DNA from: a virus
Taxonomy: Duplodnaviria > Caudoviricetes
Virus record (IMG/VR): IMGVR_UViG_2832349384_000006
Coordinates: 1-64,000 of that record
Reading direction: 5' to 3' (one strand)
Length of the DNA: 64,000 nucleotides
Below are positions 2,064 to 15,856 of the stretch, one piece after another. Position 1 is the first letter of the stretch. Every line of letters begins with the position of its first letter. The position numbers and the translations under genes are program-made. Below the pieces are notes generated by a model that saw only the letters and a list, made by a program, of their open reading frames with translations, was not told where the DNA came from and did not search any database.

Positions 2064-2249
2064 TCATTTCTCAGTGCTGTAAACGCCGTCGCAGTACAGA
2101 ACGGCGCGCGGGCGGCGCAATTGGATTGCTTCCCTCATTCGCTCGCACTGGTCGAAGCTCGAGTAAATTCGCTCAGATACCGGCAGCGCGTCGCACGCAT
2201 CATGGCCGCACGGGCTTACCAGCAGGAGGAAGCCGATAAGTGTCAGCAT
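2064..2249 (-). CDS. Small Cys-containing phage protein with hydrophobic N-terminus (possibly YebW/DUF1482-like)
   Basis: SD GGAGG, overlaps recT stop; spaced Cys pattern; family call is weak. Confidence 0.5.
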   Translation of the reverse strand: MLTLIGFLLLVSPCGHDACDALPVSERIYSSFDQCERMREAIQLRRPRAVLYCDGVYSTEK

Positions 2250-3361
2250 GCCGCCTCCTGCGCCAGCGACAGATCATCGATCGCCTGCTGATAGCGCTGA
2301 ACCTCATCAGCGCTCAGGAACCGCGCAGAGCGATGCAGAAGGGCGCCGAGCTCTGCCCGTTCCTGGCTTGTGGTGCCGCCGTTCTTGCCGGCCGCATCGA
2401 TCGACGCACCCAGGCCGGCAATCGCGTTAAGGCGGTGGTGTTGCAGTACGATTTTGTTTTTCAACTCGGTGTACAGGGTGATCCCCAGCTGCGCTTTCAT
2501 ATCTTCAACTGAGGCGCGGAGGTCTGTCGCCTGAGCAGTGGTGGTGATCTTGTCGATGCTGCCGCGAATATCTTCAGCAATCTTTTCTGGTGCTGAATTT
2601 TCTGTAACTGCCTCGGGCGCCTTATCTGCCGCCTTTATCAGTTGCCCGGTGCTTACGCGGGTATCCGGCGTGACGTCTTTTTCTTTATGCCAAACCATCT
2701 CTTGCCCGCGCTCGAGCATTTCCATGATCTCGGAGTTATTCGGCAGCCGCCGGCCAAGGCGGTGCATGACGGATTTGCGAGACATTGACTCGTACCAGTT
2801 AACCCACGGCCCGCTGTCACTGTTCCTGCTTGCGGCGCGGACTTTCTCGATATCCTCGATATTCATCACTTCAAACTGCAGCTCGCCGGTGCGCATCTTC
2901 GCGTAGGCGAACGCACCTATCATCTCGCCACGGTCGAGCATGTTAGGTTCATAGAAAATGTGTTCGCCATTCTCGTCCATCCAGACGCGGAATTTATCGT
3001 TTTTGTACAATACGCGGGTGGCGATGATAGATACCTCGCCAGACTGACGTACCCGCTTCATTACGCCATCGATCATTGGCAGGTACTGTGCGCGGCGGAC
3101 CCGTTGACCATTTGGGAGCTTGGTTTTGTAAACGACGAGCGCAGCTTCGCGTCCGTCTGGAATGAGTCCGTCTTTTGCACAAGACGAAAGGGCGTTGATG
3201 ACGCTCTGGCGATCGGCATCGAACAGATCTGGATTCGTTGATAACGCCACTGCCGCGGCGTTGGTGAATTTTTCAAAGCTGACGTGGCTCGGCAAAATCG
3301 CTTTTGCCGGTGCCAGCTGTTCCGCCAGGTCTTTCTGGATCATCGCAAGTTGGTTGCTCAT
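2243..3361 (-). CDS. recT: RecT-family ssDNA annealing protein
   Basis: GLIPDGREAALV, AQYLPMIDG and WYESMSRKSVMHRL motifs; downstream of recE. Confidence 0.9.
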   Translation of the reverse strand: MSNQLAMIQKDLAEQLAPAKAILPSHVSFEKFTNAAAVALSTNPDLFDADRQSVINALSSCAKDGLIPDGREAALVVYKTKLPNGQRVRRAQYLPMIDGVMKRVRQSGEVSIIATRVLYKNDKFRVWMDENGEHIFYEPNMLDRGEMIGAFAYAKMRTGELQFEVMNIEDIEKVRAASRNSDSGPWVNWYESMSRKSVMHRLGRRLPNNSEIMEMLERGQEMVWHKEKDVTPDTRVSTGQLIKAADKAPEAVTENSAPEKIAEDIRGSIDKITTTAQATDLRASVEDMKAQLGITLYTELKNKIVLQHHRLNAIAGLGASIDAAGKNGGTTSQERAELGALLHRSARFLSADEVQRYQQAIDDLSLAQEAAC

Positions 3362-6300
3362 TGGTATGCTCCTTGGGCTACGCGCAGCGCTTCGATGCGG
3401 CGCTGGTCAAAGTCGTTAATGTCGTCCACGATTTCTTCTGTGATCGGTTCTGGCCACACGTCGGTATCCTGTGCCTGTTTGATATCCCGCAGGGTTTTGC
3501 GGTACTCAAGGCGGCCGAGCTCGAGCAGGTCAGCGGAGGCCTCAACGATGGCGATCCAGTGGTAGTGCTCATCTTTGTTGACGAAGATCCAGAAGAACTG
3601 ATCCAGCGCCGCAACATCGCAATACATGCCCGCGCTCAGGTGGTAATCGCGCTCGATGATTTCACGGTGCAAGCGGGCGCGCAGGGCGCTTTGCTTGACA
3701 TTACCCATGCTGACGGTTTTCAGGTCGTAGCCGATACGCAGGCCCACGGCCTCAATCTCAAGATCGGGACGTACGCGCAGTTCGAGGCCGGTTTCTTCAT
3801 CGATACCGAAATAGCTGACCTCGACCGCGCGTTGTGGGTTCTGCAGCAACTGCCCGACAGATGGGTGGGTGAACAGGGCGCGCTGAATTGCCTTGGCGTG
3901 TTTCATCTGCGCCTGCGTGATCGGCTGGCGCTGGTCGTTCCCATTTTTCCAGGCGCTGATCACTTCGTCGGCGAATACCGCAGTTGGCAAAATCGTTTTG
4001 ATACGCGCGGCCATATCCTCTTTGCTGCCGCTGACCGGCAACGGCGCCGGAATCGCGCGCTCTTTCTCGACAAACTCCGGATCGATGGTCGCCAACTGTT
4101 CCAGCAGTGCGTCGCGGCCGCCGGTGGTTTTCAACGGCGCCGGCAGGGTGGCGTTGTACTCTTTGATGCAGGCTTTCATCGCCGTGGCGGTGATTTTTGC
4201 GTCCTCTGGGATGCTCTGAAATTCCGGCGGCAGCAGCATGTAGAACTGGCCGATTTCGTCAGCGTTGCCGCCCAGCGCATACGGCGCTTGCAGGGTGGCG
4301 TTATGCTTCTCGATCACGGCGCGCAGCGTTTCGGCGTCGGTCTGTTTCGGCAGGGTGGCGTTGTGCTGTTCGATAAATGCGCGCATCGATGCTGTATCTG
4401 TGAATGCCCCCTCGGGGATCACAGGCTCAACGCTGAATTCCTCGTCCAGCTTTTCAGGTTCTAGCGCCAGCGCGTGAACCAACGAGCCGAACGTCAGCGC
4501 ATCGGTGCGCTCGCGCTGTATGGTTTTGATAACGTGGCGGCCGTGGTAATACATCAGGCTGATCCGCGCGTCCTTTGCCATCGTGCTGCTGATGCCGTTG
4601 GCGCTGTGATAGACCTCGTTCGGAATATCCAGATAACGGCCGGGCTCGAAGTATGCAGGGGCTGCCGGTTCTTCCCGGCGCGGTGCGTTGACGACTGCCG
4701 CGGCAGGCTCGTTCTGTACTTCGACTGGCGCCGCGGTATCGACGTTTTCACCTGACAATTCCGCTGTTTCGCCTGACACCTCGGCCGTTTCCGTTGACGA
4801 ATCCAGGAACTCGCGAACATCGTCGCCGGTCGTGGCGCCCGCGGCGTCTACCTTGGCCAGCGGTGACGCGTCAAACAACTCGGAAACGTCAAATCGACCA
4901 CCACCCATACTGCGGAGTTCGCTGGGTTGCTGCTGCGCGACTTCCGTTTTTACGCCCTCATTTGAGGCGTCAACCCGCTCGGGCGCAGGGTTTTCCTGCT
5001 GCAGCGCGCCGCTGGCGCTTGCGTCGGTGGCTGTAGCCAGTTCCTGATATTTTCTCTCTGATTCCCGGCGCGCTTCCTGCAGATAGAACTCCACACGAGA
5101 ATCGATATAAGCAACGCGCGGATCCTTTTCATCCTGCCAATTTTCCAGAACGTCGCAGGTGAGGTGATGAACATCATCGGCAACCAGCTGGTTGAATGGA
5201 TCGCACGGTTCGATCTCCTTGGCCAGCAGTCGAGCGATGGAGCCGTGCGAAACGTCTCCGATGGCAGTAATCAATTCTGCAACGTCGCGTTCATCCATAA
5301 CACCAGTCGTTCCGGCCAGCGCCGCACGTATTTCAGCCCGAAGCCATGCGCGGCGCTCGGTCTCGAACTCGGCGACCACGTCATCTTTTTCACCCGGATT
5401 TGAGGCCGTTTGTTGCACGCTTTCCGCGTTTTTTTGCGCAGGTTTACCGTCGATTTCGATCAGATTGGCGTTGATGTAGCTGCGCAGCGCACCGGGGGTA
5501 ACGTGCAGGTTTTCTTCGGCCCCGCGGATTAGTGCAACAATCGCCTGTCGGGAGAACTGCAAAACGCCAGGCGTGGCGCTGAGTTGCTCATTCCACGCTT
5601 TCAGCGCCGCATCGTTGCGTTTTTTCATCTCGGTGACCGCGCGGATGATGGCGCCCGGCGGGTTTGAAATGTCGAAATCAGACGGATACAGCGCGCAGCC
5701 GATTACGGTTTCCAGCATCTGCAGAGAGTCGATCGGCGTGCCGGTTGCCGGTTCGGCTCCGTTTGTGAGGATTGCGCCGGATTCGGTGCGCAATGGCCCC
5801 TCAGGCGCGGTTTCGGCTGGTTTGGCGCCGCCGGCCGCTGAGGTTTGCCACTTCGTGATAACGCCCGCGCGCTGTTCTACCGTAGCGTCGAGGTATTCGG
5901 TGGCGAATTGGCACAGTTTGCCCAGCTCCGGCACCTTGCCGAACGGTGGCCAGATGGCTTTCATGCCCGAGATCGCAGTGATCGGCATTTCCGGGTAGGT
6001 GTGTGCGAACTGTTTAAGGCTGGTCAGCGCCAGAATGACGTTTTGCGGGTAGCGCTGCGCATCGTCCATCACCAGAGCTTTGGCCGCGGCCAATTGCTCG
6101 TCGTTCAGCTTCAGGCAGTTATTGCCGTAAAGCCACGCCGCGGCGATCACGGTGTGCTTGTCGAGGCTCGATGCGAAGTATTCACCTGCTGTTTTCTGCT
6201 GCTCCTGCACCACTTGCGTTTTTTCAGTGGTCCTGCTGTTTTCTGCTGCGCCTGCACCACCTGCAGGTTTTGTCATGTAGGGATACAGTTTCGGGAATGC

Positions 6301-6594
6301 CACGGACGGATCGAGCGTGTCGCGCGGCACACAGGTTTTGCTGGCGTCGCTTTCCAGCGCCCAGGTAAGCCAGAATGTTTCGCTGAATTCGCCCTCGGCC
6401 GGCAGTTCGTCCACGACTGGAAAATCGATGCGTACCGGCGCGAAGTAGTCGGATTTTGAATGGCCAGCTTCCATGAAGAGAAAATCACGTTTTGTCTCCG
6501 CGTGATCGTCAGACTTCGCCTCAAAGTACGTAAAAAGATGGTTTTTCCCAGATTTCTGTTTTGCCCTGTAAAGATAGGCTGCAACATTTTGCAT
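3358..6594 (-). CDS. recE: RecE / exodeoxyribonuclease VIII-like protein
   Basis: C-terminal PD-(D/E)XK nuclease (GISST, RVRPD...YDLKT, YHLSAGMY); coupled to recT. Confidence 0.9.
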   Translation of the reverse strand: MQNVAAYLYRAKQKSGKNHLFTYFEAKSDDHAETKRDFLFMEAGHSKSDYFAPVRIDFPVVDELPAEGEFSETFWLTWALESDASKTCVPRDTLDPSVAFPKLYPYMTKPAGGAGAAENSRTTEKTQVVQEQQKTAGEYFASSLDKHTVIAAAWLYGNNCLKLNDEQLAAAKALVMDDAQRYPQNVILALTSLKQFAHTYPEMPITAISGMKAIWPPFGKVPELGKLCQFATEYLDATVEQRAGVITKWQTSAAGGAKPAETAPEGPLRTESGAILTNGAEPATGTPIDSLQMLETVIGCALYPSDFDISNPPGAIIRAVTEMKKRNDAALKAWNEQLSATPGVLQFSRQAIVALIRGAEENLHVTPGALRSYINANLIEIDGKPAQKNAESVQQTASNPGEKDDVVAEFETERRAWLRAEIRAALAGTTGVMDERDVAELITAIGDVSHGSIARLLAKEIEPCDPFNQLVADDVHHLTCDVLENWQDEKDPRVAYIDSRVEFYLQEARRESERKYQELATATDASASGALQQENPAPERVDASNEGVKTEVAQQQPSELRSMGGGRFDVSELFDASPLAKVDAAGATTGDDVREFLDSSTETAEVSGETAELSGENVDTAAPVEVQNEPAAAVVNAPRREEPAAPAYFEPGRYLDIPNEVYHSANGISSTMAKDARISLMYYHGRHVIKTIQRERTDALTFGSLVHALALEPEKLDEEFSVEPVIPEGAFTDTASMRAFIEQHNATLPKQTDAETLRAVIEKHNATLQAPYALGGNADEIGQFYMLLPPEFQSIPEDAKITATAMKACIKEYNATLPAPLKTTGGRDALLEQLATIDPEFVEKERAIPAPLPVSGSKEDMAARIKTILPTAVFADEVISAWKNGNDQRQPITQAQMKHAKAIQRALFTHPSVGQLLQNPQRAVEVSYFGIDEETGLELRVRPDLEIEAVGLRIGYDLKTVSMGNVKQSALRARLHREIIERDYHLSAGMYCDVAALDQFFWIFVNKDEHYHWIAIVEASADLLELGRLEYRKTLRDIKQAQDTDVWPEPITEEIVDDINDFDQRRIEALRVAQGAYQ

Positions 6595-6623
6595 TGTGTA
6601 GTTCTCCTAGGTTTAGGTACAAT
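6594..6623 (+). promoter_or_regulatory. Candidate sigma70 promoter antisense to the early-left operon
   Basis: TTGTGT (6594-6599), 18-nt spacer, TACAAT (6618-6623). Confidence 0.55.
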
Positions 6624-6657
6624 GCCAGCCGATCAGTGATCTGCTTCGGTTGGTCAT
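6613..6657 (-). CDS. 14-aa leader ORF (MTNRSRSLIGWHCT) directly upstream of recE
   Basis: SD GGAG and ATG at 6657, TAA at 6613-6615; below the ORF-track cutoff; translation unproven. Confidence 0.35.
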   Translation of the reverse strand: MTNRSRSLIGWHCT

Positions 6658-6749
6658 TGGTTATGCTCCGGTTATTGGGGGTGGTTCCCCGGTAACCCGT
6701 CGCCGGGACGTAAAGCCGGTAGACTGGCCCGCCTTGTGCGGGCCTTTTT
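6631..6749 (+). ncRNA. Candidate ~120-nt antisense/trans-acting sRNA
   Basis: Bounded by the promoter above and an intrinsic terminator whose U-tract is on the + strand; internal hairpins; central segment complementary to several early-gene RBSs. Confidence 0.55.
6726..6749 (+). terminator. Intrinsic terminator GGCCCGC-CTTGT-GCGGGCC-TTTTT
   Basis: 7-bp GC stem plus T5 on the strand opposite to the surrounding genes. Confidence 0.8.
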
Positions 6750-6754
6750 ACTTT

Positions 6755-6982
6755 CTAATCGCAATAACTGCGGTTGCAGTGTGGGCAGTAAATAACATGG
6801 GTGTTTTTTGCTTCGTCCAGCGAAATACCGGTTTCATACCCACGCAATCCGTGTTGCTGGTAAATATCCTTTTTGCAACGAAAACAAATCCCATCGTATG
6901 GCGCGAAATGTGGAACGTGTTTATTGTTGCAATATTCCACCTGTGCCTTTCGTGCCGCGACAGGGGAAAATAACTTTTCCAT
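6755..6982 (-). CDS. Hypothetical phage protein, probable Zn ribbon
   Basis: CFRC and CPHC motifs; SD GAGAGG before ATG 6982. Confidence 0.65.
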   Translation of the reverse strand: MEKLFSPVAARKAQVEYCNNKHVPHFAPYDGICFRCKKDIYQQHGLRGYETGISLDEAKNTHVIYCPHCNRSYCD

Positions 6983-7069
6983 AAATAACCTCTCGTGGTG
7001 ATTGATATTGAAATGCGCCCTGCGAGTTGACGCCCCGAAAGGGAAACGCTTGACGCATTTCAATATTCT

Positions 7070-7112: not shown

Positions 7113-7418
7113 TCAATCATCGCTTGCGAGCATGGCTAGCAACGCCAGCAGGAGCAGTTTTTTCGGGGATGGTTTACCCTTGATGCCAAACTCTGTGGCG
7201 TACTCACTGCCTACGTTAAAGTGCGTACGCACCGCAGCATCAATGGCACATTTCGGGCAATCAAAATCACCAGCATCACTCCCGCTAGGAGTAACGAGGG
7301 CGTGTGGCTTTTCTTTGTTATCGGTATTGACGATAAAGCCAATAGTTTCACCCTCGCTTAATACTTCAACGATGTTTTTGTGCAAAAGATTCATTTTGAT
7401 TTCTACGGTCTTAATCAT
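7113..7418 (-). CDS. Hypothetical early protein
   Basis: ORF with SD GGAG; ATG 7418 better spaced than 7424. Confidence 0.65.
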   Translation of the reverse strand: MIKTVEIKMNLLHKNIVEVLSEGETIGFIVNTDNKEKPHALVTPSGSDAGDFDCPKCAIDAAVRTHFNVGSEYATEFGIKGKPSPKKLLLLALLAMLASDD

Positions 7419-7493
7419 GGTCATGCTCCGGTTTTAGGTAATGGGAACCCGTGGCTGATTAATTCCGCCGATAGGGTGTTGCTAATTTAAATG

Positions 7494-7691
7494 TCAGTTC
7501 GTGCCAGCAGGCTCGAAATATTCAGGAATGCCACGTGACTCAAACGGCATTTTTATTGCTCGCAGGTTACCCGTTGGCTCGAACCGGTATACTTGGCAAT
7601 GAATATCGTAATGTGCCACCCATGCCGCGCCGGTGCGCTTATTACGGAATCGTGCCGCTTTTCCGCTATGCGGAATTGTGGTGCTGATCAT
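7494..7691 (-). CDS. Hypothetical early protein, first gene of the pL operon
   Basis: SD GAGGA and ATG at 7691. Confidence 0.65.
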   Translation of the reverse strand: MISTTIPHSGKAARFRNKRTGAAWVAHYDIHCQVYRFEPTGNLRAIKMPFESRGIPEYFEPAGTN

Positions 7692-7877
7692 TGGTTAATC
7701 CTCAGCTTGATTATTGGTTATGCTCGCTGTCTTTCCAGCCGTCCCCGGTCTTTCCCGGCGTCAGAACGTCGTACCTGCTGCGCGCCTGTCTCTGTCATCT
7801 CATCCACCTTTTCATGCGCCGGTGGCGGCTACTTCGTGGGCGTCCTGCCTTGATGACTCGTTGCTGCGATGAGACTA

Positions 7878-8048: not shown

Positions 8049-8441
8049 TTACTCTTCGATCGGCTTATACCGCCCCCGAAGGTACTTCTCAACGTACTCA
8101 TCGATTTCTTTTAGCCGGAGCTGGAAGAGATCAATCATGCGTTCTTGTTCTGCTTCTGGAAGCTGGCGGAATAATTCAAGCATTTCTAGTTCTTTGGGCT
8201 TTAGCCCTGTGTCTTCATCTACAACCTCCCCCAGAAGCCATGCGAGGGAAACCCCACCAGCCTCAGCAACGGCAATTGCAGATTTTTTGCTCATAGTTCC
8301 GGTTTTAAACCAGCCCGTAACTGCTTGTTTACTGACATTGGCAACTCGAGCCATTTCCGCTTTGGAAAGCCCTTTATCGTTAAGTTCTGTCAGCCTTGAA
8401 ACGAGGTTTGGTCGTGATTGTTCCGTATTCATAATCAGCAT
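8049..8441 (-). CDS. Prophage repressor (XRE HTH, no S24 peptidase domain; DicA/RacR/Gifsy type)
   Basis: HTH (LSKAEMARVANVSKQAVTGW), only ~130 aa, divergent from a Cro-like gene, between OL and OR. Confidence 0.85.
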   Translation of the reverse strand: MLIMNTEQSRPNLVSRLTELNDKGLSKAEMARVANVSKQAVTGWFKTGTMSKKSAIAVAEAGGVSLAWLLGEVVDEDTGLKPKELEMLELFRQLPEAEQERMIDLFQLRLKEIDEYVEKYLRGRYKPIEE

Positions 8442-8768: not shown

Positions 8769-9335
8769 ATGTCGTTAACATTTCAAGATGTTATCAGGGT
8801 AGGTGGACAGCGGCTGAGTTCAGGGAATCAGTCTTCAGTCCGCCGCCGCACAGTAAAACCTGACGCCGTCCGTCAGGCGGTTGAGGAATGGCAGGGCACG
8901 CTGCCAGGCCGGGCACAGGAGACCATCGCCAAGCTGATCACCGATGAATGGTTCCGGCGTGGCGGAAAAGGCCTCCAGCTGGGCGGCATTGAGCGCAACA
9001 ACCGACAGAACATCTTCCGCTGGTTAGATAACCCGAACCGTACGGAGAAATACGCCGGCTACGTCCTGCAGCTGGCGCCGGTGATCGCTGACGTGATGCC
9101 GATCGAGATCGCCAGAAAATACGGATTGAAGCAGGGGAAAACCAAGCTCGAGCTGGTGGCCGACGCCATCAAAGAATGCGCGGACGCCAAACAGGCAGCA
9201 TTACTCGGCGCACCGCTGCGCGAGCTGGAGAAAGAGATCCGCGAGGGTATCGAATCGCTGGTGCGGCTGGCGCCACCGGACAGATGGGTGGCCGTTATGG
9301 CCAGCGCCGCGGCGATGTTTAGCGGCTGCATGTAA
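8769..9335 (+). CDS. CII-like regulator (YdaT family)
   Basis: Position after the YdaS-like gene; NRQNIFRWLD and AIKECADAKQAALLGAP motifs. Confidence 0.7.
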   Translation: MSLTFQDVIRVGGQRLSSGNQSSVRRRTVKPDAVRQAVEEWQGTLPGRAQETIAKLITDEWFRRGGKGLQLGGIERNNRQNIFRWLDNPNRTEKYAGYVLQLAPVIADVMPIEIARKYGLKQGKTKLELVADAIKECADAKQAALLGAPLRELEKEIREGIESLVRLAPPDRWVAVMASAAAMFSGCM

Positions 9336-9353
9336 TAACCGGAGCATAAACCA

Positions 9354-9596
9354 ATGGCCAATTTTTCAAGAACACAGATCGAAACGCAGATCCGCGCCCA
9401 ACTGGTGCGCGAGGGAATTCCCGACGACGTGGCGCGCTCGGCTGCCGGCCGTGGCGCCGATCATTACCTGTCCAGCCCGAACGCGACGATCGCCAGCAGT
9501 ATCGCTATCGCAAAGACGTACGCAAAGCCGCTAAAGCGGGTAAAGGGCAAGCCGGATCGCCTGCATGTACCTGGGCGCCGTATGGGGCATCGCTAA
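9354..9596 (+). CDS. Hypothetical protein
   Basis: Strong SD; 2 nt from the MTase start. Confidence 0.65.
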   Translation: MANFSRTQIETQIRAQLVREGIPDDVARSAAGRGADHYLSSPNATIASSIAIAKTYAKPLKRVKGKPDRLHVPGRRMGHR

Positions 9597-11429: not shown

Positions 11430-12170
11430 ATGAAAACACCAGAGTCACTGATTAGCAGGCTGCAGCGCATCATGCCGCCGGGCGTTAAGCCGAAGTTCAA
11501 CACCGCTGAAGAGCTGCTTGCCTGGCATCGTACGGAAGGGGAGAAGCGCAGCGCCGAGCTTGAGAAGGCGAACCAACGCGCCCGCGCAGAGCGGATTTTC
11601 GGACGTTCGGGGATCTGCGACTTGCACCGCAACTGCACGTTCGCGAATTACCAAGTGAGCAATGACGGGCAGCGCCACGCCCTGAGCAAGGCCAAAAGCT
11701 ATGCGCAAAATTTCGGCATGGGGTTTGGCTGTTTCGTCTTCAGTGGCGGATGCGGTACCGGAAAAAACCATCTGGCCGCCGCGATCGGTAACCATCTGCT
11801 GGCGAAGAATCACACGGTGCTGGTGGTTACCATCCCCGACCTGATGCTGCGTGTTCGGCGCTGTTACGACGGCGGAGAGTCCGAAGGGGCATTACTCGAC
11901 GACCTGTGTAAGGTCGATCTGCTCGTTCTCGACGAAGTTGGCGTGCAGCGCGAAACACGCGGCGAGTGGGTGATTTTGAATCAGATCATCGATCGCCGGC
12001 TATCGTCGTTAAAGCCGGTGGGAATTTTAACCAACCTGAGTTCGAGGGAGTTAACCGATGTTTTAGGCGCAAGAGTCATGGACAGATTAACGATGGATGG
12101 CGGGATCTGGGTGGACTTCACCTGGGGAAGCTATCGGAAAAATGTAAGCCACCTTCGGGTGATTAAGTGA
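11430..12170 (+). CDS. DnaC/IstB-like helicase loader ATPase
   Basis: Walker A GGCGTGKN, Walker B LLVLDE, TNL and RVMDRL motifs. Confidence 0.92.
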   Translation: MKTPESLISRLQRIMPPGVKPKFNTAEELLAWHRTEGEKRSAELEKANQRARAERIFGRSGICDLHRNCTFANYQVSNDGQRHALSKAKSYAQNFGMGFGCFVFSGGCGTGKNHLAAAIGNHLLAKNHTVLVVTIPDLMLRVRRCYDGGESEGALLDDLCKVDLLVLDEVGVQRETRGEWVILNQIIDRRLSSLKPVGILTNLSSRELTDVLGARVMDRLTMDGGIWVDFTWGSYRKNVSHLRVIK

Positions 12171-12184
12171 TCGGAGCATAACCA

Positions 12185-12571
12185 ATGACCAACAGAGTAA
12201 CCGCAAAGCAGCTCGTGGATATCATCCTCGGCAAAGAAATGAGCACCACTGAAATATGGGAAGCGGTCAAAGCCGCGCACCCGGCAAACACGATGACGCG
12301 GCAGGAGCTGGCACTCAGGCTACGGTCGATGATCAGATCACCAGACGTAAAAATCACAAAGAAGGGCTGCGGGCCGAGGGCGCTCTACAAGCTTACAAGC
12401 GTGTCCGACAAATTTGTTGAGCGCGCCGAGGTGAATTATCGCGCCAATCCCCGTACCGGCACGCCGGATAAAACGCTGTGGCACTTCCACCCCAAAGAGC
12501 TGCAGTTCTGCAACGTCCACAAGATGTTTGATCAGGCGCTGGCCAACCTGCGCGGGAGGACATCGGCATGA
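12185..12571 (+). CDS. Hypothetical, probable winged-helix protein
   Basis: Strong SD; helix pattern; family not assigned. Confidence 0.65.
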   Translation: MTNRVTAKQLVDIILGKEMSTTEIWEAVKAAHPANTMTRQELALRLRSMIRSPDVKITKKGCGPRALYKLTSVSDKFVERAEVNYRANPRTGTPDKTLWHFHPKELQFCNVHKMFDQALANLRGRTSA

Positions 12572-15167: not shown

Positions 15168-15856
15168 TGAACGCACAGCAATTGGAATATATACGGCTGG
15201 AGTTAACCAATGCGCTGCATGATGACTCTGGCAGCACTAAGGGACAACTCCAGGCATTTATCGAGCACCCGCCGGCTGATAAAAATCACTATCCGCGCCA
15301 GCGTATCCACAAGGTCGAACTGGAGGGTGAGCGCTGGGCCGATGCGGAAAATTCCGCCGTTTATGCGCTCGAAACACGCAGCCGCAGGCAACCAATGCCA
15401 CCGATCAACGATCATGTCTTTTCGTCGTGCGCGTGGCGCCGCGCCGTCATGACGCTTGGCGAACATCAAATTGCATGGCTGCGCTACTGCTACGGCTTCG
15501 ATCTGCAGTTCAAATACCAGACCGAAATTTGCCAGCACGTGTGGGAGAGCTACCAGGCGTACAAAGTCGGCAAGCGCCTCCAGTCAAAAATTATTAAGCG
15601 CCTGGTGTCGTTAGTCTGGCTGGCCGTGCAGGAAACGGCGGCAAAAAACAAAAATGAGACGTACAAGGAATACGCCGGCAGCGCACTGGCCAACTTGATG
15701 AGCGTCGACCGTTCAACCTGGTCACGGGTATATGCGCCGCACTGGGCGCGCCTGAAAGAGGTCGCGGAGAAAATGGACGTAGAAGCCCTGCAGCTAGTGT
15801 CGTCAAGTCGCGAAGAGATTATTTATCGGTTGGAATTGCAAAATGCAACAAAATAG
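15164..15856 (+). CDS. Q: Late antiterminator Q (phage 82-type)
   Basis: TKGQLQAF, WRRAV and WLRYCY motifs; position before late promoter and lysis genes. Confidence 0.85.
   Translation: MMNAQQLEYIRLELTNALHDDSGSTKGQLQAFIEHPPADKNHYPRQRIHKVELEGERWADAENSAVYALETRSRRQPMPPINDHVFSSCAWRRAVMTLGEHQIAWLRYCYGFDLQFKYQTEICQHVWESYQAYKVGKRLQSKIIKRLVSLVWLAVQETAAKNKNETYKEYAGSALANLMSVDRSTWSRVYAPHWARLKEVAEKMDVEALQLVSSSREEIIYRLELQNATK

Follow-up and report, generated by a model that had tools for sequence, protein, structure and literature searches.

Phage-encoded RNAs that act on repeated complementary sequences are represented by c4 of P1 and P7 and by the CI RNA of P4, and in P1/P7 small differences between seed and target define heteroimmunity. 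Both are processed from longer transcripts, and their repeats lie in one operon (icd-ant or the P4 leader). Antisense RNAs that cover a ribosome-binding site (RBS) in cis include R1 CopA/CopT-tap-repA, P22 sar and lambda OOP, each with a single cis target; in R1, a leader peptide is coupled to the downstream gene. In T4, one regulator, the RegA protein, acts on many early mRNAs through a shared start-site sequence. To our knowledge, the known prophage antisense RNAs have either one cis target each or repeats within one operon, and IsrB of the Gifsy prophages, the closest positional parallel discussed below, has had no assigned target since 2008. Here we analyse a candidate small RNA (sRNA) gene of about 120 nt at 6630-6749 on the + strand of a 64,000-nt stretch (hereafter the window; positions 1 to 64,000 of IMG/VR record IMGVR_UViG_2832349384_000006), which is part of a 78-kb provirus record and contains a lambdoid, Gifsy-like Serratia prophage. 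We propose, with a probability of roughly 0.6, that the RNA would repress translation of the prophage's early genes, in cis before recE and in trans at several other gene starts that share one sequence box.

An earlier note on the window, made from the letters alone, had described a promoter (TTGTGT-N18-TACAAT, 6594-6623), a transcribed unit and a terminator on the + strand. The terminator was borne out: GGCCCGCCTTGTGCGGGCC followed by T5 at 6726-6749 (stem-loop 6726-6744, U-tract 6745-6749) is found on the + strand only and is the sole strong + strand terminator that the terminator scan returned in the area. Half of the promoter survived. Its -10, TACAAT at 6618-6623, has a counterpart (TATAAT, TATACT, TACAAT or TAGAAT) 5-7 nt upstream of the modelled RNA start in each of four lineages of homologues (A-D, described below), with flanks that are otherwise unrelated. 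The -35-like TTGTGT (6594-6599, 18-nt spacer) is weak, with a 3/6 consensus match, and failed the consensus scan; TTGnnn at 17-18 nt spacing recurs in lineages A-C. The promoter overlaps the start codon and the Shine-Dalgarno (SD) sequence of recE on the opposite strand. All homologues of lineages A-D finish in the same terminator, and a fifth lineage, E (L115), has its only TATAAT some 37 nt farther upstream. Related phages retain promoter, terminator and repeats together, which agrees with the expectation set out in the earlier note.

The RNA is predicted to fold into four hairpins (-58.9 kcal/mol, z = -4.25), namely hairpin 1 (6631-6662), hairpin 2 (6670-6697), hairpin 3 (6699-6724) and the terminator stem-loop, with a free 7-nt anti-SD linker, AUGCUCC (6663-6669), that is single-stranded in the fold. 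The 28-nt middle part of the unit had been placed between hairpins; it consists instead of the 3' arm of hairpin 1, this linker and the 5' arm of hairpin 2. The - strand also folds better than its shuffles (z = -3.41). In group A, however, the fixed + strand structure keeps 711/720 cells (99%) paired on the + strand versus 562/720 on the - strand, nearly every stem substitution is wobble-compatible on the + strand, and nine G-U pairs of the window RNA become A-C mismatches on the - strand. The RNA is assigned to the + strand because of these G-U pairs, the U-tract and the -10. Within group A almost all changes are one-sided, so the shuffle control was uninformative there and the strand comparison and a deeper alignment were used in its place. 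In the deeper cross-lineage alignment, which had been fitted to the covariance model, 21/40 pairs changed on both sides (10/12 in hairpin 2), a count equalled by 0/500 shuffles and compared with at most 7 in slid controls. A promoter and a terminator on one strand and a structure with covariation support are the features of a base-pairing sRNA gene. Judged from sequence, 6630-6749 (+) is a real sRNA gene kept by selection, and it is presumably transcribed in its host.

The element core has exact matches in 28 contigs of IMG/VR and in genomes of Serratia (fonticola, aquatilis, quinivorans and others). The 120 nt are 92-100% identical in relatives whose RecE N-terminus is only 49-60% identical, and the element is conserved even where the gene on its other side is unrelated. 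A covariance model built from group A only (R1) detected diverged homologues in other Enterobacterales genomes; a further diverged homologue is that of Pectobacterium phage ZF40. No match was obtained when the element and its ZF40 homologue were searched by BLAST against 5,426 E. coli genomes; candidate early-gene boxes of a GAGGAAAGACC type in E. coli prophages would agree with the present reading. Weak matches of a second covariance model (R2) in genome G204 were set aside, as they have a different architecture and are without a box network. Two database labels deserve mention. "Aeromonas phage pAEv1818" (OL964755.1 / NC_070759.1; L001) is 97% identical over the element and has the same int-xis-recT-recE layout, and its host label may be questioned because all genome matches for the element are Serratia. 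Exact core matches in assemblies named Sphingomonas sp. NPDC019816 (L089) and Streptomyces sp. NPDC002677 (L094), one of them a 1.4-kb contig, are likely to reflect cross-contamination of the NPDC assemblies.

The earlier note had described the middle part of the unit as complementary to a box repeated in the start regions (translation initiation regions) of early genes. A search for GGAGCATAACCAATG with at most two mismatches returned 4 matches in the window versus 0.04 expected, and no shuffle reached 4. Variants with an insertion or deletion lie at 3357-3373 (recT), 7414-7429 and 9340-9358, with a weaker one at 15199-15213, and BLAST recovered the copies at 12172-12196 and 9334-9361. All copies in the window are sense to their own operon and confined to the early region, with none in the late region, as had been stated for the late genes inspected. 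Outside this phage group, the 16-mer was found as single copies only.

The copy in cis, AATAACCGGAGCATAACCAATGACC (6652-6676, - strand), is the exact complement of the sRNA seed region. When a 45-nt seed segment was scanned for duplexes against both strands of all 64 kb, only four sites stood clear of the background, which begins at -40 kcal/mol: the cis site (-72.9) and the sites at 12163-98 (-51.2), 9325-60 (-48.4) and 7403-38 (-44.9). The first trans site spans the SD-to-start region (12172-12196, +) of a 128-aa gene of unknown function (12185-12571, phrog_4183), with 22/22 nt complementary and a BLAST identity of 96% over 25 nt. The second (9334-9361, +) precedes an 80-aa gene (9354-9596) that directly follows the CII-like gene and stands before the genes for methylase and replication; this site is an AAA variant that pairs with one bulge. 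The third, AACCGGAGCATGACCATGA (7414-7435, -), lies at the start of a 103-aa gene (7113-7424; the 7418 gene). After opening costs, treated as a crude accessibility correction, the net energies of these sites are -18.9, -11.9 and -7.6 kcal/mol, respectively. Two further copies are marginal. The one at the recT start (GGAGCATACCAATGA, 3357-3373, -) is weaker, with one deletion, a duplex of -40.1 that falls within the background and a net value of -4.4, and is conserved in most group A loci; the one at the start of the first pL gene (7494-7691) is GAGGATTAACCAATG (7689-7703, -), with a net value of -1.2. Eighteen start-region sites were evaluated (17 gene starts and a start-less copy in the pL leader), and the net energy was negative for five only, all of them on the earlier note's list of targets; ten other gene starts, none on that list, all gave positive values. 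From these energies the window prophage has three good trans sites (12185, 9354 and 7418) and two marginal ones. The xis and pL-leader entries of the list did not hold in this prophage, and their values are given where the counter-evidence is weighed. Several sister phages have a perfect box at the xis offset, before varied coding sequences that are candidate xis genes only, and two (L031 and L035) have a perfect box before a gene starting with ATGATCAGC, as the 7691 gene does. An accessible seed is complementary to the SD and AUG of several mRNAs, above chance expectation, and this complementarity is conserved.

Whether seed and boxes change together in related phages was a test set beforehand, and the outcome was positive. 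The RNAs of lineages A, B, C and D all fold into hairpin 1, an unpaired anti-SD stretch (7 nt; 10 nt in C), hairpins 2 and 3 and the terminator, and the unpaired heptamer reads AUGCUCC in A, AUACCUC in B, AUGCCUC in C (within the longer unpaired stretch) and UUGCCUC in D. The corresponding boxes are lineage-specific: GGAGCATAA(A)CCAATG in lineage A, GAGGTATGACCAATG in lineage B and GAGGCAAGACCAATG in lineage D. There are 4 copies in the window, 5 and 8 in two 20-kb lineage B loci (L109 and L110, respectively), 6 in a 20-kb lineage D locus (L114) and 4 in ZF40, versus 0.04-0.07 expected, all sense to the operon; counts of the other lineages' boxes were 0-1, each lineage having its own. Orthologues of the 9354 gene that are 68-69% identical have an A box in 13 type-A loci and a B box in 6 type-B loci. 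A group A phage whose seed contains an extra U (L117, the AAA variant) has four AAA boxes and no AA box. Copies that are unable to serve as start sites also track the lineage sequence, namely the seed copy in L114 and ZF40 (AATA, not AATG) and the pL-leader copies; these start-less copies are therefore not retained as start sites. Relatives of the 9354 gene without the sRNA were sought as a control and none was found: each of the six more divergent homologues scanned is accompanied by the RNA at a distance of about 3 kb, and the remaining thirteen come from contigs in which it had been detected before.

The same arrangement is present in ZF40, an isolated temperate phage, with a D-like RNA at 5236-5364, a TATAAT, and boxes at three genes: gp05, gp07 (the exonuclease gene) and gp13, which comes first after cII. 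As annotated, the ZF40 (L122) open reading frame (ORF) gp08 at 4919-5407 runs antisense across the entire predicted sRNA and its terminator; this annotation is probably over-extended, with the true start nearer an ATG at about 5212. One genome (G126) carries three lineage C copies of the RNA (L111-L113) whose seeds differ by single bases (GTCATTGATC, GTCATTGGTC and GTCATTTGTC).

In cis, the box copy heads a 14-codon mini-ORF (MTNRSRSLIGWHCT, stop TAA; 6613-6657, - strand) which terminates 18 nt short of the recE ATG at 6594 and is a perfect complement of the 5' half of the sRNA. Of 24 group A variants, 22 preserve the length of the mini-ORF, and a 13-codon variant stays in frame in spite of indels; the peptide itself is variable. 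The equivalent start in lineages B and C opens either a mini-ORF or a gene of 106-130 aa. The RNA covers the start of a short ORF ending just before recE, as antisense RNAs acting on leader peptides do. A type I toxin-antitoxin reading was rejected because the peptide is short, is not conserved and has no hydrophobic character. The recE SD is flanked by a 7-bp inverted repeat, GCATTGT...ACAATGC (6590-6596 and 6619-6625), which not all relatives conserve; pairing of its arms in the leftward mRNA would join the mini-ORF end to the start codon of recE, a possible basis for coupling. In one relative (L042, IMGVR_UViG_3300031418_000778), the mini-ORF stop is lost and the ORF continues in frame into recE (MTNRSRPLIGLHSTKTQENCIMQNV...).

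The described RNAs nearest to this one by position are IsrB-1 of Gifsy-2 and IsrB-2 of Gifsy-1, detected transcripts of 88 and 94 nt that are induced by starvation (PMC2330248). IsrB is associated with ProQ, and a "likely role in lysogeny maintenance" has been conjectured only (PMC5391140); IsrB-1 appeared expressed in Gifsy-2 of strain 4/74 (PMC7067206). The earlier note had drawn this parallel, and for position and orientation it agrees with the published record (PMC2330248): both RNAs lie antisense (<- -> <-) between the start of recE/sbcA and an upstream small gene of a Gifsy-like prophage, both are structured and end in an intrinsic terminator, and in both a -10 lies about 20 nt beyond the recE start codon. 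Homology is seen between the RecE proteins of the window and of Gifsy (56% over their C-terminal half) but not between the upstream genes. Homology of the RNAs themselves is reciprocal but weak and sub-threshold. The Rfam search that had been suggested, isrB included, gave no match at gathering level, and the sub-threshold IsrB match (RF01386) at 6680-6748 (+) reached 20.5 bits against a gathering threshold of 35 (E 0.086-0.15). In the reverse direction, the R2 model gave a weak match exactly at the Gifsy-2 IsrB locus (L054, 5993-6080; 17.2 bits, E 0.075) and R1 gave none; a shared hairpin loop, UUGGUC, was noticed by eye. Unlike the window RNA, IsrB is without hairpin 3 and the anti-SD linker, and duplex and box scans of Gifsy-2 found no repeated box and no outstanding trans site. 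The window RNA may be regarded as a positional counterpart of IsrB and possibly a distant relative, outside the IsrB family.

Other parallels are partial. Like c4 and P4 CI, the window RNA matches repeated complementary sequences, but it has its own -10 and terminator, and its repeats are the starts of unrelated genes in both divergent early operons, features which set it apart from c4-type immunity RNAs. Like CopA, sar and OOP it lies over an RBS in cis, and the mini-ORF 18 nt before recE resembles the R1 leader peptide, with coupling predicted by analogy; unlike them, it would not be limited to a single cis target. The likeness to T4 RegA lies in one regulator addressing many early mRNAs at a common start-site sequence, with an RNA proposed here in place of a protein. 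The antisense RNA STnc6030 of the Salmonella prophage BTP1 excludes superinfecting phage of the same kind (PMC7067206); it shares with the window RNA its being a prophage antisense RNA, but it is encoded elsewhere, and no report links it to a start-site box common to several genes. A preprint on the Pas sRNA proved unrelated.

Our model of how the RNA would work is as follows. The sRNA would be made from a sigma-70 promoter of its own, in the direction opposite to the early-left operon, and would stop at an intrinsic terminator of its own. It would pair in cis over the RBS and the whole 14-codon mini-ORF, blocking mini-ORF translation and lowering recE-recT expression through translational coupling, cleavage of the duplex, or both. 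In trans, the free linker would nucleate on the SD of other early mRNAs that have the SD-to-AUG box, and the duplex would then extend through the 3' arm of hairpin 1, which is rich in G-U, and over the start codon, occluding 30S binding, with the 12185, 9354 and 7418 genes as the best candidate targets in the window. The comparison shows the gene anatomy, conservation, structure, strand, repeat statistics and joint change of seed and box; we infer transcription in this host, repression, recE coupling and timing (lysogen versus induction).

Several observations weigh against trans action. The fold sequesters the greater part of the anti-box and leaves just 7 nt free; opening sRNA positions 20-47 would cost about 20 kcal/mol. 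In the window, pairing at xis (GGAGCATAACCAAATGAC, 1988-2007, -, with one insertion) has an unfavourable net energy of +15.7 kcal/mol because the target is structured, the start-less pL-leader copy (CGAGCATAACCAATA, 7712-7726, -) has +8.5, and the values at recT and 7691 are marginal. In most group A phages an AA seed is combined with AAA boxes in the right operon, leaving a 1-nt bulge. Lineage E and Gifsy-2 IsrB have no box network, and trans action is therefore not general to this RNA class; from the comparison, the network looks like a feature of lineages A-D. Co-variation might also result if a family of repeats, the mini-ORF copy among them, had evolved in concert. Finally, the group A phage L117 has a B-type box (GATGAGGTATGACCAATGGC) at -4668, the position that xis has in the window prophage, which suggests module exchange and possibly cross-regulation by the RNA of the type B prophage in the same genome.

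The main rival is an explanation that we consider unlikely, if worth serious attention: the RNA is an antisense regulator in cis only, and the other boxes are linkers at module junctions or a start-site cassette spread by recombination, their complementarity being a by-product. The boxes do coincide exactly with gene boundaries, their flanks vary and the genes downstream are interchangeable, as at mosaic junctions; these phages encode RecET; and the exchanged box at the xis position, the poorly pairing copies and the bare IsrB and lineage E loci would all be expected. A junction, however, must match only the same junction elsewhere; this reading does not predict that different junctions within one genome should be identical, and such identity, which occurs in both direct and inverted orientation, would invite rearrangement. 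In each lineage, four discriminating positions have changed jointly in 4-8 copies, in tracts of 15-20 bp that are short for gene conversion; the lineage sequence persists in start-less copies, among them the seed copy of L114 and ZF40; and the anti-SD is single-stranded in every lineage folded. Moreover, provided that the RNA is made, its 22/22-nt match over an SD and AUG should have an effect in any case. The start-less copies would also fit a binding site, and the box might be the operator of a RegA-like translational regulator protein or another RNA or DNA site read by a protein, with the antisense overlap unrelated. RegA itself works through a box common to many early mRNAs, and several small early proteins of unknown function are encoded nearby. 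We hold this to be improbable, as no candidate protein was identified, and the idea accounts neither for the constant coincidence of the complementary heptamer with the one unpaired stretch of a covarying RNA nor for the agreement between seed copy and box at places where that copy is no start site. Very improbable, in our judgement, is the case in which no + strand RNA exists and the structure acts in the leftward mRNA (for example in processing, stability or anti-termination in the recE leader), with the + strand terminator and -10 being fortuitous. The folding of the - strand, the strand symmetry of Watson-Crick covariation and the conserved frame of the mini-ORF would accord with it; the wobble pattern across the 720 cells, a U-tract that follows its GC stem on the + strand only, a -10 at fixed distance in lineages A-D and the detection of the positional counterpart IsrB as a + sense transcript (PMC2330248) speak against it. 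Repression in cis and at several trans sites remains the reading that we prefer.

The surrounding region has a lambdoid layout. The early-left operon, on the - strand, comprises int (660-1742), xis (1717-1992) followed by a small gene, recT (2243-3361), recE (3358-6594, a 1078-aa RecE/exonuclease VIII) and, beyond a 160-nt gap upstream of recE, a 76-aa gene (6755-6984), a - strand terminator (7096-7075) and two small genes. The operon probably starts from pL (TTGACT-N17-TTTACT, 7906-7878) with a leader of about 180 nt (7689-7871), in which the start-less box comes before the box-like start of the first gene; no N-like protein was recognised near pL, where phrog_3722 and others are of unknown function. 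The repressor gene lies at 8049-8441, and the early-right order is cro, a CII/YdaT-like gene, the 80-aa 9354 gene, a DNA methylase, the replication initiator, a gene at 11430-12170 and the 128-aa 12185 gene. The prophage adjoins the SraC/RyeA-SdsR locus (438-585), and its integrase gene stands directly beside this bidirectional SraC/RyeA-SdsR/RyeB sRNA locus (149.9 and 103.8 bits), which is known in Salmonella as a prophage insertion hot spot.

The lineage-specific pairs of seed and box (A, A+, B, C and D) may, as a tentative idea that we rate well below the repression model itself, constitute orthogonal RNA immunity codes: the sRNA of a lysogen would silence excision, recombination and replication-region genes of its own prophage and of superinfecting or co-resident phages with the same box, and phages with another box would escape. 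If true, this would account for the type A prophage (L117) and the type B prophage (L109) that occur together in one Serratia fonticola genome (G002), and it would be an RNA-based, multi-gene counterpart of repressor heteroimmunity. The earlier note knew of no description of such a start-site network in lambdoid prophages, and our literature search likewise found none published. What is new in the comparative data is one phage RNA set against a start-site box common to both early operons, with box and seed diversifying together, an arrangement that extends to the isolated temperate phage ZF40. If confirmed, this would provide a function for IsrB-like RNAs and a post-transcriptional layer in lambdoid lysis-lysogeny control, would explain the long identical start regions at early-gene boundaries, and would suggest an RNA-based specificity system between related prophages.

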